Below are positions 4,508-63,631 of a stretch of DNA of 64,000 bases, piece after piece. The translations under genes and the position numbers were made by a program. The DNA is from Octopus sinensis (taxonomy: Eukaryota). Location: positions 4,836,001 to 4,900,000 of the forward strand of contig NC_042999.1 in assembly GCF_006345805.1 (NCBI RefSeq). Reading direction: 5' to 3'. Position 1 is the first letter of the stretch. Every line of letters starts with the position of its first letter. Below the pieces are notes generated by a model. That model had not been told where the DNA came from and ran no database searches. It saw only the letters and a program-made list of their open reading frames with translations.

Positions 4508-5419
4508 CAAGCGCTGGATTAACCCATTAAGCAAAACAAGCACGTTTTTAGGGCATCAAGGGATGGGGACACCACAGAAACGAAAATGGTTTACGGCACA
4601 AAAGAAATCACGGCAAGACTTCTGCCCCCCCCCCCAAAAAAAAGAACTTTTATTATTTTTTTTTCGACACAAACCCCACCTTTTCGGTTACGGGGAATAC
4701 GAATCTGCAAAAAAATTGGCAAAATTCGACATTTCTAAATTACCACCCTACCCCCATTTCCTTCGTTTTAAACTTTTTTCACACAATTTTTTTTTTCAAA
4801 ATATGCAGAAAAATACGGACATCATGATTCGGACAAAAATTTCAAAACATTTCTGTATTTACGGTTAGGGTTTTAGGGTTAGGGTTGAGGTTTTAGGGTT
4901 AGGGTTGGGGTTAGGGTTTTAAGGTTAAGGTTTTAGGGTTAGTGTTGGGGAAAAAGTTAAAATCGAAGAAGTTGTGGGGGAAAGGTGGGGGGGATTTCAC
5001 AATGCCGATTTTTGGCAATTTTCCGGAACCTCCGTTTCCGAAAACAGGGATTTTTGGAGAAAAAAAATTACAAAAATAAACAAATTCCGGTGAAAATGGG
5101 AGTGGACGGGCGGAAGTATTTTCCGAAATCACTTTAAACTCGCTAAAATAATATTCGTTATGTTTTATCTCTACTAAGTATAGATGCAGAAGTTTTACGT
5201 AAAATTAATTTTAACGATATCATCAAACACTGCAATTAAAAACAAAAACGGAGAAAACTTTTCAAATATAATTAAAATGGAAGCATTCAAAAATAAACAT
5301 TATTTTCTATCTTACCGTGAATTTTGTTGCATTACGAAAAATAAAAAAAAAATTATTTAATGGTTTATTAAACCATTTATTAAACCTTTCAAGTGCTTAG
5401 GGGTTTTAATCCGGCCCTG
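4508..5419. mobile_element. hAT-like MITE with a nested TTAGGG-containing element
   Basis: Imperfect TIRs CAAGCGCTGGATTAA / TTAATCCGGCCCTG; 8-bp TSD GTGTGGTC (4500-4507, 5420-5427); relative at 33847-35034. Confidence 0.75.
4865..4942 (+). repeat. telomere-like TTAGGG variants inside a repeat element (inverted partial copy at ~6750-7060)
   Basis: TTAGGG/TTTTAGGG units; flanking 4611-4865 matches the reverse complement of 6800-7060. Confidence 0.8.
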
Positions 5420-6115: not shown

Positions 6116-7569
6116 TCCAGACAAGCAAATATTAGATATAAAGATAGGAGCGGCTCAGACTTAGGAGATACTAGATGCTGAGGACGCCACTAGTGGTTCA
6201 GTCAGGAGATACTAGTGACTCGGAGTGGGGAGACAACGGGCCAGGCGGGAAATAGTAGATGTTAGGAAGTATCAGTGGCTCGGGAAGGTATGTTGAGGAG
6301 ATATTTATGATAAAGAACGTGAAGGATCTAATGTATTCGTTTCTTTCTGCCGGTCATGGGTGTCCTAATTTAAGTTTATTCATCGTTTTTTTTTTTTTTG
6401 TTTTGTTTTCTTTTTAAATCTTGACTCGGCCTTCTTTGTGTGTACCTGAAGACAAAGAAGCCAAGGTTGGCTTATCCACTCCTTGAAAAGTGTACCCGAT
6501 CAGTAATGCTATGTAATAAATATGTTTGTTGAAGCATTGCAATTATAAAAGAAATACGAGCCACCTCTAAGATTAATTACGCGATACCAGGAGCGATACA
6601 TAATCTGATTCGTCGTAACTGTTGTGGAAGTGTTTAAGAGTAACTCTAAGTATTTTTGTCATCTGTGTGTGGTGTGCGTTATACGTTGTTGGATTGGAAG
6701 GCGGCGAGCTGGCAGAAACGTTAGCACGCCGGCCGAAATGCTTAGCCTTTTTTCCCTAACACTAAACCCTAACCCCAAAACCCTAACCCTAAAACCCTAA
6801 CCGTAACTACAGAAATGTTTTGAAATTTTTGTCCGAATCATAATGTTCGTATTTTTCCGCATCTTTTGATAGAAAAAAATCTGAAAAAAGTAAAAAAAAA
6901 ATTAAGGAAAAGGGGGTGGAGGGGGTAATTTAAAAATGCCGATTTTTGCCAAATTTTTTTGCAGATTCGTATTCCCCGTAACCGAAAAGGGGCGGGTTGT
7001 GTCGAAAAAAAATTTTTTAAGGGTGGCTTGGGGCGGGAGATGGATGGAAGTCTTGCCGAGAATTGTTACTAGGATTTAACTGGTACTTTTTTTTATCGAT
7101 CTCGAAAAAAAAAAAATGAGATTCGAACTCAAAGCGCAGAGAACCGCAAAGATTGCTAAAGCAATACAATACAACGATTTAACAACCCAACCAGTTGAAC
7201 TTCAGGAAAGCGAAACAATAAACAAAAATAATGAATGAAAAATAGCTAATAGCCCTGTATAACAATGAAATAATGAAAACGGAAATGAAAATAACCTTTC
7301 CTAAGGGTATTTTCTGTGTAGATCACGAATATAACATCCATTTCTTTCTGTGAGCCTCCAGTTTCTCGTAAATTATCTTACTTATGTTAAATGCACTGAT
7401 GGTTCCGTAGGGATTGAATGCAAACAGGATTGGGTCGAAACTGACAACTCTAAAAGTTATGAACGGATTTTGATATAATTTTAATGGGGTGTTCTTCAGG
7501 AATCGTCAATCTAACCTATGAAAATTATAAAAGTACACTCAATATTTTTTGTTATATGTGTCCAAATCC

Positions 7570-10230: not shown

Positions 10231-10615
10231 CTAGCAGTATCGCCCGGCGTTGCTCGGGTTAGTAAGGGAAATAACTATATAAGCATTTTTAGAGAGTTAT
10301 AGCAAAAAAAACTGCATTAAAAATGGAAAAAAAATGATAGTAATTTTTTTTAAATTGTTGACTCATCGTAGACTGTTTTAGAGAGTTACTTCCCTTATAT
10401 AATAGCGAAAATGCATTAAAATGGGAAAAAATTATGGTAAATTTTTTTTTTAATCGTAGACTCATCGTAGACGCGCGCTAATACCCAGAAGGGCTCAATA
10501 TGAATCACGACTATAAGATACCCGGTTTTGGTTAAACTGCACCGCAAAATGTGGGAGTAGTTAGGAATCTAAATCGAAGGAGACAGACACACAACTTGAC
10601 TTTTATATATAAAGA
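10231..10615 (-). mobile_element. non-autonomous Helitron
   Basis: 5' TCTTTATATA, 3' CCCG-AGCAACGC-CGGG hairpin then CTAG, A|T insertion site, no TSD. Confidence 0.85.
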
Positions 10616-18091: not shown

Positions 18092-18096
18092 ATATG

Positions 18097-24753: not shown

Positions 24754-25094
24754 CTAGCAGTATCGCCCGGCGTTGCTCGGGTTTGTAAGGGAAATAACTA
24801 TATAAGCATTTTTAGAGATGTAAAGTATAATAGCCATCTCAATATGGCTAACCCCAAAGAGGGGCGGTTACTGTAGCTTTTTACGTTCTGAGATTTAATA
24901 ATACATTTTTAGAGAGTTACTTCCCTTATATATGCCAAAAATGCATTAAAAATGGGAAAAAATGAAGGGCTCGATATGAATCACGACTATAAGATACCCG
25001 CTTTTGGTTAAACTGCCCCGCAAAATGTGGGAGTAGTTAGGAATCTAAATCGTAGGAGACAGACACCACACAACCTCACTTTTATATATATAGA
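24754..25094 (-). mobile_element. non-autonomous Helitron
   Basis: TC...hairpin-CTAG termini. Confidence 0.85.
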
Positions 25095-25392
25095 TATTCT
25101 GCACAATACCACAAATTTGTTTGTCAGTTGCTTGACTTTAACCACTTGAGCATGTCCCTTCGCAGCTAACTATATGTGCATCTCTGATGATGAGCAGGAG
25201 TAGTGGGGGAGCATCAGAGCCATGTGTTGAGAGGGATTCTTTGGGGCTTGAATAAATATCGTAAAAGCAAAGCTTGAAGGAAATATTAGCTATTTTTCGT
25301 ACTTTTTAAGAGTAAGCAAACAGTAAATAACAATTGCTACCCAAAGACAAAAATTGTGTTACATAGTGTAAATCAATTTTGAAGTAAATATT

Positions 25393-25674
25393 TACGGAGA
25401 TGTACTTGCGAAGCAAGTGACTTGATCTGAGATCGTGTGCTGGAACGAAAACAATTGCAGCGTGGATGGTGTTTATAAGCCATTTAAGAAACCCACAAAA
25501 ACCGTTAGATTCACTTCAACATTTAAATTTAATTTGTCAAAATATTTTCGTCACTTTGAGACCGCGACCTATTCTCTGACAAAACTTTGTGCTGGTCAGT
25601 GAACAGGTCGCGGTCTCAAAGCGACGAAAATATTTTGACAAATTATATTTAAATGTTGAAGTGAATCTAACGAT
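25393..25674. mobile_element. TSD-flanked fold-back element, Penelope-pLTR-like
   Basis: 16-bp TSD TTTTGAAGTAAATATT (25377-25392, 25675-25690); arms 25503-25580 and 25595-25672. Confidence 0.8.
25595..25639 (+). ncRNA. minimal hammerhead ribozyme, G3-C8 variant
   Basis: GTCA-GTGAACA-G-GTCGC-GGTCTCAAA-GCGAC-GAAA-ATAT-TT-TGAC. Confidence 0.7.
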
Positions 25675-26093
25675 TTTTGAAGTAAATATTATTTTAAAGT
25701 AAAGACTATTTGCCAACATAATGTGGTTGTCCTGGATGGGACGCTTGTTACTGTTTTTTAGCCCCAGTAAACATCATTTCCAGCTGTTTATATGACACAA
25801 TATCTGTGTCCTTATATTTTCGAACAGGGAGCTCAGCACTCCCATTCAGCATAAAGCAACAATCGTCCCACTGTTACTGAATATTTCTCTTTGAGAGATT
25901 TAGAAATAATGTTTATGTTTGAATATTTTCTTTTCTATAAATTTCAGTTCCAAGGACAGATTTTTGATAAAACCAGTTTTCAAACATAGCAGCAAGCTAA
26001 TAACTGGGATGGTATTTTTTAGTCAATCCCCCTCATTGCACGTGAATTAAGCCATTAATTTACAACAGCTTCATGAAGCAATCACCTGATACA

Positions 26094-26510
26094 TACTCTT
26101 ACTCTTTTACTCTTTTACTTGTTTCAGTCATTTGACTGCGGCCATGCTGGAGCACCGCCTTTAGTCGAGCAAATCGACCCCGGGACTTATTCTTTGTAAG
26201 CCCAGTACTTATTCTATCGGTCTCTTTTGCCGAACCGCTAGGTGACTGGGACGTAAACACACCAGCATCGGTTGTCAAGCAATGCTAGGGGGACAAACAC
26301 AGACACACAAACATATACACACACACTTATATATGTATACATATATACGACAGGCTTCTTTCAGTTTCCATCTACCAAATCCACTCACAAGGCATTGGTC
26401 GGCCCGGGGCTATAGCAGAAGACACTTGCCCAAGATGTCACGCAGTGGGACTGAACCTGGAACCATGTGGTTGGTTAGCAAGCTACTTACCACACAGCCA
26501 CTCCTGCACC
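26094..26510 (-). mobile_element. SINE B, full length
   Basis: Matches 17701 family. Confidence 0.9.
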
Positions 26511-53467: not shown

Positions 53468-54042
53468 CGAAGTGTTTCATCACTTGTAAATATTAGCATT
53501 CTAAACTAAATCTTCCATCCCTGTTGTCAATCTGTAAAAACGTTTTATCCTTGTCAAGATAGGAGTCTTCACTTGGAATGGAAACCCCAACAGATGTAAG
53601 TGGGGTGGCAGGATAGTTGGAATCAACTTGCCTCCAATGTCTAATATTCCTATTAAGCTGTGCAAACGGAGGTATTTGCAACAATGTACAGTCATTTAAA
53701 TTCTGAACTTCACCAGCTATAATTGAACGAGGGGCATCGCAAGATGAAATAGACTTTACTTTATTATTTGAAACTATTATCCTTGCATTTACCTCTGCAG
53801 CAGTTGAAGCGTGATTATGGATCCCAATCTTCTTAAGCTCTTTATAATTTTCATCTGTATGAAGTCTTGCCTTGCACACACGATTTTCACACCTCCAGTA
53901 TATCTACAATCCATCTGCATTCTGCTTATTTCTTGTGTGTATATAATTTTTTTTGATCGACCAGTTGTTTTTCCTTTCTCTGAAGTTATGATCTTGCAGG
54001 TTGTCATGTTGATGGGAAGACGTTTTGAATAAATTTAATTCC

Positions 54043-56849: not shown

Positions 56850-57215
56850 GAGCATTAGGTTTGTCAGTTTCTATCCAGTCTCCTCAGCTGATGTTTGTGC
56901 CGGATGTGACTTTGCAGTCCAAGTCGGCGGCAAAAGAGTCATGGGCAGAATTCACACAGGATGGTCAGTGTGGGTCGAGGATGTTGAAGACGCTCCATTC
57001 TTCTCCTGTGCTTTACCTCCTCATTCTGTTGTCTGTTCTGCTCGAAGTAGCTGGCTCCATTGCAGATAGAAGTCCTCCAGGCTGTCCTATCCATGGCAAT
57101 CTGTTCCCATGAGGATGGCTGGATGTTAGTTTGAGCAAGGGTCTGTTTGAGCTGATCTTTAAAATGGAATTTTAGACCTCCTCTGGGTCGTGTTCCAATT
57201 GCAAGTTCTCCATAG
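56850..57215 (-). pseudogene. RTE/BovB-like LINE ORF C-terminus
   Basis: YGELAIGTRPRGG..FKDQLK..WEQIAMDRTAWR..CEFCP*..GLQSHIRHKH. Confidence 0.85.
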
Positions 57216-57333
57216 ATATGTATACATGTATTTCTGTATACATATCTTGGAGCCTGGTGCAGACATTTGGTTCGCCAGTCCTCAGTCAAATCGTCCAACC
57301 CATGCTAGAATGGAAGGCGGACGTTAAATGAAG

Positions 57334-63067: not shown

Positions 63068-63631
63068 AGGTGCTTTTTACATGGTGCGGGCCCAGGTGCT
63101 TTTTACATGGTGCGGGCCCAGGTGCTTTTTACATGGTGCGGGCCCAGGTGCTTTTTACATGGTGCGGGCCCAGGTGCTTTTTACATGGTACGGGCCCAGG
63201 TGCTTTTTACATGGTGCAGGCCCAGGTGCTTTTTACATGGTGCGGGCCCAGGTGCTTTTTACATGGTGCGGGCCCAGGTGCTTTTTACATGGTGTGGGCC
63301 CAGGTGCTTTTTACATGGTGCGGGCCCAGGTGCTTTTTACATGGTGCAGGCCCAGGTGCTTTTTACATGGTGTGGGCCCAGGTGCTTTTTACATGGTGCG
63401 GGCCCAGGTGCTTTTTACATGGTGTGGGCCCAGGTGCTTTTTACATGGTGCGGGCCCAGGTGCTTTTTACATGGTGTGGGCCCAGGTGCTTTTTACATGG
63501 TGCGGGCCCAGGTGCTTTTTACATGGTGCAGGCCCAGGTGCTTTTTACATGGTGCGGGCCCAGGTGCTTTTTACATCGTGCCTGCCCAGGTGCTTTTTAC
63601 ATCGTGCCTGCCCAGGTGCTTTTTACATGGC
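63068..63631. repeat. 26-bp minisatellite, ~21.5 copies
   Basis: Unit GGTGCTTTTTACATGGTGCGGGCCCA, at the end of a family C copy. Confidence 0.95.

Follow-up and report, generated by a model that had tools for sequence, protein, structure and literature searches.

In the established hammerhead structure, positions 3 and 8 of the core must pair, and this tertiary pair was established by an engineered swap. The closest described relatives of the motif reported here are the minimal hammerheads (min-HHRs) of Penelope-like elements (citations marked "in part" refer to the accessible part of the source). Their consensus comprises an extra nucleotide, a G10.1-C11.1 pair and a palindrome, and they occur in pairs on opposite strands with a spacing of 100-700 bp (Cervera and de la Pena, 2014, PMC4209133, in part); among the motifs listed there, U17 occurs in 24 of 56 and the extra nucleotide is a G in 1 of 56. 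Cleavage by min-HHRs is poor, even when they form dimers (PMC4209133, in part). Naturally exchanged 3-8 pairs have been described as U3-A8 (Perreault, 2011, PMC3088659, in part; Penelope-like Cercyon elements of Schistosoma, PMC4209133, in part), and a table for Chlamys and Hydra shows C3-G8 in all 34 rows (PMC8557442, in part). In the Poseidon element PAc of the anole, a C3G/G8C double mutant partly restores the ribozyme (Frangieh, 2024, PMC11167929). The anole hammerhead needs protein in order to cut, and in vitro the element can insert without this ribozyme; priming takes place 111-118 nt into the ORF, and both target strands are extended (PMC11167929). PMC3884650 (in part) likewise refers to an engineered G3-C8 variant. 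The pseudo-LTRs (pLTRs) of EN+ Penelope elements are 193-218 bp long, include the first 12-22 codons and form head-to-head inversions flanked by 8-10 bp duplications; self-priming was proposed for their palindromic junctions (Arkhipova, 2013, PMC3846280, in part). For Octopus vulgaris, the accessible part of a repeat study lists 190 Penelope-like families and reports no ribozymes (PMC13282606), and PMC6765202 (in part) served for context.

We analyzed a window of 64,000 nt of the Octopus sinensis genome (NC_042999.1), in which a 282-base insert at 25393-25674 lies between the two copies of an exact 16-nt direct repeat. This repeat is present exactly twice within the window. The insert is an ordinary dead copy that consists of head-to-head stubs of an element's end module, one near-complete and one partial (Table 1). 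Its inverted arms (25496-25580 and 25595-25679) are 85 nt long with five mismatches and were predicted to fold with -138.9 kcal/mol (z -15.8), which bears out the first-pass annotation of a fold-back insert bounded by a target-site duplication. The end of the inverted copy and the target duplication have a 5-nt match. The left copy accounts for three of the arm differences and the right copy for two; all five are private and none is compensated, which indicates that the long hairpin is decaying. Judged by these differences, both copies have decayed by about 3% since insertion. RNA editing was ruled out as their origin, as they are present in the DNA. A second copy of the unit was not found within the 64-kb window. 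A small hairpin of 6-7 bp (25403-25419), about 10 nt from the fixed 3' end of the unit, may correspond to the stem-loop that the anole element uses for priming.

Table 1. Features of the insert and its borders (positions within the window).
Feature	Position	Strand	Remarks
Left copy of the 16-bp target-site duplication	25377..25392	+	Family alignments start at 25392/25393 (loose ends)
Near-complete short unit (pseudo-LTR and ORF start of a likely Penelope-like element)	25393..25594 (202 nt)	-	High depth in 4/4 runs
First 30 codons of the parent ORF	25394..25483	-	27/30 identical to residues 1-30 of P0003
Fold-back formed by both copies, 85 bp	25496..25679	.	Buries both hammerhead motifs
Decayed hammerhead motif of the left copy	25533..25583	-	U4A and C8U in the core; stem II with one G-U; stem I of 7 bp
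Second, inverted partial copy, head-to-head	25595..25674 (80 nt)	+	Corresponds to 25580 through 25501 of the unit
Intact minimal hammerhead motif (type I) with G3-C8	25595..25639	+	Predicted cut between 25635 and 25636
Right copy of the 16-bp target-site duplication	25675..25690	+	

Several other repeats and frames surround the insert. An older high-copy repeat at 25150-25373, about 80-85% like the aligned contigs and presumably SINE-like, ends just left of the target duplication. A dispersed 400-bp family with CA/TA-run ends, which we take to be an octopus SINE, is represented at 26090-26500 and by copies near 18092, 24230, 31660, 32888, 33838, 50227, 60530 and 62405 that are 88-97% alike. 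Another dispersed family contains 102-bp units in tandem and has a TA-rich end; it occurs at 24800-25100 and near 10488, 15714, 34431, 38876, 42780, 45633 and 51733. We assume this family to be Helitron/HINE-like. Degenerate TTAGGG-like runs in opposite orientation lie about 1.8 kb apart (4859-4947 and 6754-6807), and a 26-bp tandem repeat with 21.7 copies and 96% matches occupies 63068-63630. A minus-strand frame at 53493-53903 with a sub-threshold FLYWCH match (E 0.0017) is possibly a DNA-transposase remnant, and an open frame at 56939-57304 (minus strand) without Pfam match seems to us to resemble the C-terminal end of an RTE-type LINE.

The right arm contains a hammerhead motif in which stem I has 4 bp (25595-98/25636-39) and is followed by the core GUGAACA (G3 at 25599, U4, G5, A6, A7, C8 at 25604, A9), an extra G at 25606, a stem II of five Watson-Crick pairs including G10.1-C11.1 (25607-11/25621-25), GAAA (25626-29), the palindrome AAUAUU (25629-34) and U17 (25635). 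The right arm and the family letters carry the consensus core U4, G5, A6, A9, G12, A13, A14, A15.1-U16.1 and H17. In place of the literal C3 and G8 of CUGANGA, this copy and its family have G3 and C8, and the motif was thus classed as a variant. G3 and C8 could form a Watson-Crick pair, as would be expected in the three-dimensional fold. On the minus strand, the core of the left arm reads GAGAAUA. Both arms therefore agree with the first-pass annotation, which had spelled out the stems, the extra purine and the palindromic stem III of the right arm and had noted the decayed core and longer stem I of the left. What is described here is hammerhead anatomy, and activity is predicted from it. The extra nucleotide, the palindromic stem III, U17 and the opposite-strand pair are ordinary for Penelope-like elements; G3-C8 alone is unusual.

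Fold predictions for the isolated right-arm motif gave pair probabilities of 0.89-0.99 for helices I and II; the probability of stem I dropped to 0.04 when 25591-25700 was folded. The hammerhead helices of the left copy reached 0.50-0.97 with the unit folded alone. In the fold of the whole insert, the hammerhead helices had pair probabilities of 1e-21 to 1e-44, and in transcripts of either strand the long hairpin left them below 1e-20. According to these models this copy would be dead, as the 85-bp hairpin buries the motif and makes the ribozyme fold unavailable. The palindrome AAUAUU allows a helix III between two molecules, and the 6-bp A-U duplex contributes just -0.2 kcal/mol.

We estimated the chance level with a descriptor derived from the published min-HHR consensus that accepts any Watson-Crick 3-8 pair; it was formulated post hoc and run without a positive control on published hammerheads. 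It matched solely at 25599 in the window and in none of 150 window shuffles or 100,000 unit shuffles. Among 1.78e9 positions of order-2 Markov sequence there were 165 matches irrespective of the 3-8 letters, 37 when a Watson-Crick pair was required and four when pair and palindrome were both required, the last corresponding to about 3e-4 expected per window. Rfam yielded no hammerhead match, neither at the gathering score nor at E up to 10, as anticipated by the first-pass claim that a standard search would miss the motif. The exact motif pattern had no loci in viral contigs, where P0005 (see below) likewise found none. In metagenomes, 119 loci with scattered letters at positions 3 and 8 were found, none resembling the unit beyond one 34-nt match. 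Two of the metagenome loci (L006:3028-3052 and L009:789-813) carry CTGATGA and a stem II identical to that of the octopus motif and are possible canonical hammerheads. Nine bacterial GTDB loci with the 19-mer were taken as chance.

The hammerhead appearance might instead be due to chance, be a coding by-product or mark the end of a DNA transposon (MITE/Helitron-like), with the long hairpin being functional as a microRNA or editing substrate. We regard this as very improbable and as largely refuted already. A 40-codon frame crosses the motif, the two unit ends share a 5-nt inverted match, and the only Rfam matches are sub-threshold microRNA-precursor models. However, the background rate is 2e-9 per position, searches with the 40-codon frame found neither a homologue among longer proteins nor a Pfam family at the cut-off, the private, non-compensated arm differences show a decaying hairpin, and the motif is located upstream of, and in the same sense as, the start of a Penelope-type ORF.

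This ORF starts with an ATG at 25483, 56 nt downstream of the predicted cut. The last 90 nt of the unit on the hammerhead strand are an open frame, and the fixed 3' end lies 91 nt after the ATG. The 30-residue frame had one match among 1.84 billion representative proteins, P0002 of Octopus bimaculoides (E 1.4e-4), whose longer relatives include P0003 of O. sinensis (XP_029654200.2) and P0004 and P0005 of O. vulgaris. P0003 continues in frame past the 30 aligned residues and is identical to P0005 in 120 of 151 residues (E 2e-80). The pseudo-LTR overlaps the ORF start. The matching proteins also point to an octopus host. In P0003 the Penelope ORF N-terminus is fused to a methyltransferase domain in one chimeric gene model, which is probably a mis-annotation. 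P0005 contains the motifs PxKF, DKSG, PxLYGxxKxHK, RPV and DVxSLY and ends after RT motif A; we take this set to be that of a Penelope-type RT. GxKF and DKG are named as Penelope RT motifs in PMC8557442 (in part). Atlas neighbours of P0005 scored up to 0.97, and their clusters carry DUF8422, RVT_1, HTH_animal and GIY-YIG, the endonuclease being seen solely in these clusters; the search with P0002 gave only a 0.75 match. P0004 and P0005 were not recognised as RT in Pfam, NCBIfam and PDB searches, and a single-sequence fold of P0005 had a pLDDT of 33. The motifs and Atlas neighbours thus place a Penelope-type RT in the parent ORF through a chain of three gene models, as no single full-length protein or DNA contig joins hammerhead, RT and endonuclease. 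Taken with the inverted insert structure, the target duplication and further inverted joints in 3/3 DNA runs, the unit is likely the pseudo-LTR of a Penelope-like retrotransposon. The first-pass annotation had not recognised this pseudo-LTR or the ORF start within it. A tRNA-derived SINE was rejected with 0 ARAGORN genes and no tRNA-like Rfam match, a weak test for decayed heads, and searches for coding remnants with two other frames found nothing.

To determine the family state, four public runs, namely three DNA contig sets (organisms A, B and D) and one raw RNA run (organism D; X22), were aligned to 25150-25618 at 80% likeness. The 16,887, 27,355 and 13,893 contigs and 4,324 reads aligned include the neighbouring older repeat, and depth is a sum over contigs that gives no copy number. 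Coverage was very deep from 25392/25393 to a short fixed end, the family 5' end, about 5 nt beyond 25594, and variable AT-rich flanks were present at both unit ends in 4/4 runs. The unit is high-copy and fixed at both ends. C8 (25571) accounted for 94.7%, 92.1% and 97.0% of DNA depth and 434 of 466 RNA reads, and U4 (25575) for 98.0%, 97.7% and 98.6% and 435 of 449 reads, respectively. The single C>G place in each DNA run is 25161, and therefore C3 is below 5% there; the RNA run has three C>G places, and this bound holds for the three DNA runs only. With C8 and U4 in the majority and C3 rare, GUGAACA is the family state and the left arm its decayed form.

The first-pass annotation had staked its reading on GTGAACA and stem pairing being present in the family consensus. 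Both were found, the family letters at the left-arm positions being those of the right arm, and the exchange of both 3-8 partners holds in the copy and at the family level. Among the 40 of 190 letter differences listed, the one majority difference in a stem restores a Watson-Crick pair: the majority letter at 25553 (91-93% in DNA, 371 of 694 RNA reads) pairs in stem II, and the minority letter gives G-U. Subfamilies differ elsewhere (25422, 25585, 25587), and the other core letters and both helices are intact at the family level. The expressed copies of run X22 departed from the DNA majority at 25534, 25553, 25585 and 25587: stem II had the G-U in 47% of reads, the two changes 5' of helix I were present in about 90%, and 81 of 865 reads carried a 2-nt insertion next to helix I. 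A C3-G8 sister family was not found, and covariation therefore rests on comparison with the general consensus.

The structure of the insert suggests how it might have arisen. The GIY-YIG endonuclease of the element would have nicked an AT-rich site on either strand, with an offset of 16 nt. Reverse transcription would then have been primed from one nick about 91 nt inside the ORF, giving the fixed 3' end, and from the other within a U-rich internal stretch that matches the end of the target over 5 nt. Both cDNAs would have run to near the RNA 5' end, stopping 5 and 19 nt short, and then have been joined. The template was presumably uncleaved RNA because both copies retain the core. The empty target site was not seen, which we count against this explanation. 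Self-priming fits less well, as the last bases of the loop cannot pair back on 25581-83.

Since positions 3 and 8 must pair, the retention of every other core letter beside G3-C8 suggests that the master element has been under selection for the active fold. We therefore favour, with moderate confidence, the explanation that the insert consists of head-to-head pseudo-LTR copies of a family whose G3-C8 motif would keep a weak, dimer- or protein-assisted self-cleavage in the parent RNA, this copy itself being dead. By analogy with described systems, such weak, assisted cleavage would be the likeliest reading of the motif. The -0.2 kcal/mol of the dimer duplex and the poor cleavage of min-HHRs speak against it. 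Of the 12 distinct inversion breakpoints among the 15 of 106 joints listed, 4 lie within 25533-25539, on the 3' side of helix I and at a distance of 2-5 nt from the expected cleavage site. In a post hoc comparison with uniform placement, from which deletion-type and go-back rows were left out, p was about 0.001. This cluster is no proof, as it fits cleavage, stalling of the RT at helix I or switching within the 7-bp inverted repeat equally.

The same Penelope pseudo-LTR might alternatively carry a non-cleaving hammerhead descendant, retained as a folded protein handle or as passenger of a successful master copy. This is the main rival explanation; we consider it unlikely, and several observations speak for it. 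Ribozyme-dead mutants of the anole element insert normally in vitro, no reads end at its cut site, and the double swap rescues only partly (PMC11167929); as cutting is not needed for anole insertion, selection may act on the fold or on binding and not on cleavage. Both octopus copies derive from uncut RNA, and the RNA ends show no pile-up at the predicted cut, with both strands equally represented; the latter is weak evidence from one fragmented library of mostly passive copies, of which about 6% was read. On the other hand, the other core letters and both helices have stayed intact at the family level despite the subfamily differences, and unselected change at both positions would yield a Watson-Crick pair in only 3 of 9 outcomes.

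The origin of G3 might also lie in splicing. The sequence shows directly a U run followed by CAG that ends on G3, at the 5' strand of helix I, and in D. virilis an intron of the pLTR ends at the 5' end of helix I (PMC4209133, in part). G3 could thus have been fixed as the G of an intron acceptor with C8 as compensation, and splicing would rebuild helix I from an upstream exon. As the unit extends only about 23 nt upstream of G3, the donor would have to lie outside it, and no spliced joint or loose end at 25576/25577 was found among the rows listed. We regard this as improbable; as an origin story it is compatible with the favoured explanation of weak, assisted cleavage.

A natural G3-C8 hammerhead was not found in the literature searched, which yielded engineered uses and unrelated work; PMC11014351 makes no mention of one, and the published supplements searched contained no copy of the octopus family. 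Two studies outside the scope of this search may bear on novelty and activity, Lunse 2017 and Przybilski and Hammann 2007; the former reportedly surveys small hammerhead variants in Penelope-like elements and may already list G3-C8. G3-C8 as a natural family state appears to be new, natural U3-A8 and engineered G3-C8 having been published already. A genome family with a natural swap provides evolutionary confirmation of the 3-8 pair in an orientation not found reported from nature. Published descriptors require CUGANGA and therefore overlook such families, a point to consider where Penelope families are said to lack hammerheads. Several octopus species have retained this partly crippled core, and whether it still cuts would be a cheap way to tell if Penelope hammerheads are maintained for their cleavage or for their fold. 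A tentative extension, which we consider doubtful, is that this high-copy octopus lineage has run on active G3-C8 hammerheads cutting in vivo, as the cluster of inversion breakpoints at the cut site might suggest; it would be the first natural example from animals, and G3-C8 would recur in other Penelope families. CUGANGA surveys would then miss whole ribozyme families, and some elements scored as hammerhead-less would have one.

In comparison with known systems, the octopus unit resembles EN+ Penelope insertions (PMC3846280, in part; Craig, 2021, PMC8557442, in part) in its pLTR of about 200 bp with the first codons, its inverted 5' neighbour, the target duplication and the occurrence of solo pLTRs. 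It differs from them in that the insert is without ORF body, the inverted copy is cut on its 3' side and the duplication is 16 bp instead of 8-10 bp. The family is not identical to Naiad_Obim or Hydra-1_Obim, whose N-termini and hammerhead differ as far as the accessible sources describe them. Like the animal non-LTR retrozymes (bioRxiv 10.64898/2026.07.22.740005, in part), the octopus unit is short, hammerhead-bearing and pLTR-related. Assignment to the retrozymes was rejected, as no head-to-tail joint occurred among the 15 of 106 joints listed and the flanks are variable; on this evidence the unit resembles dispersed pLTR stubs and not a tandem array.

With the min-HHRs of metazoan Penelope-like elements (PMC4209133, in part) the motif has in common the type I topology, a short helix I, a 5-bp helix II with G10.1-C11.1, the extra nucleotide after A9, a Drosophila-type six-base palindromic stem III, U17, a U-rich 5' flank, the location in the pLTR and the opposite-strand pairs. 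It differs in G3-C8, as the motifs listed there have C3 in 53 of 56 cases, U3 in 3 and G3 in none. PAc (PMC11167929) and the octopus element are alike in having a Penelope-type ribozyme near the ORF start and priming inside the ORF, the latter being presumed for octopus, whereas the ORF of PAc starts within stem II and not, as in octopus, downstream of the cut. The engineered C3G/G8C exchange in PAc is identical to the core of the octopus family, in which G3-C8 is the natural family state and activity is predicted. Like the natural U3-A8 hammerheads (PMC3088659 and PMC4209133, both in part), the octopus motif represents a compensated exchange of the 3-8 tertiary pair. U3-A8 arises by two transitions that keep the pyrimidine-purine order, whereas G3-C8 of the octopus family involves two transversions that reverse it.
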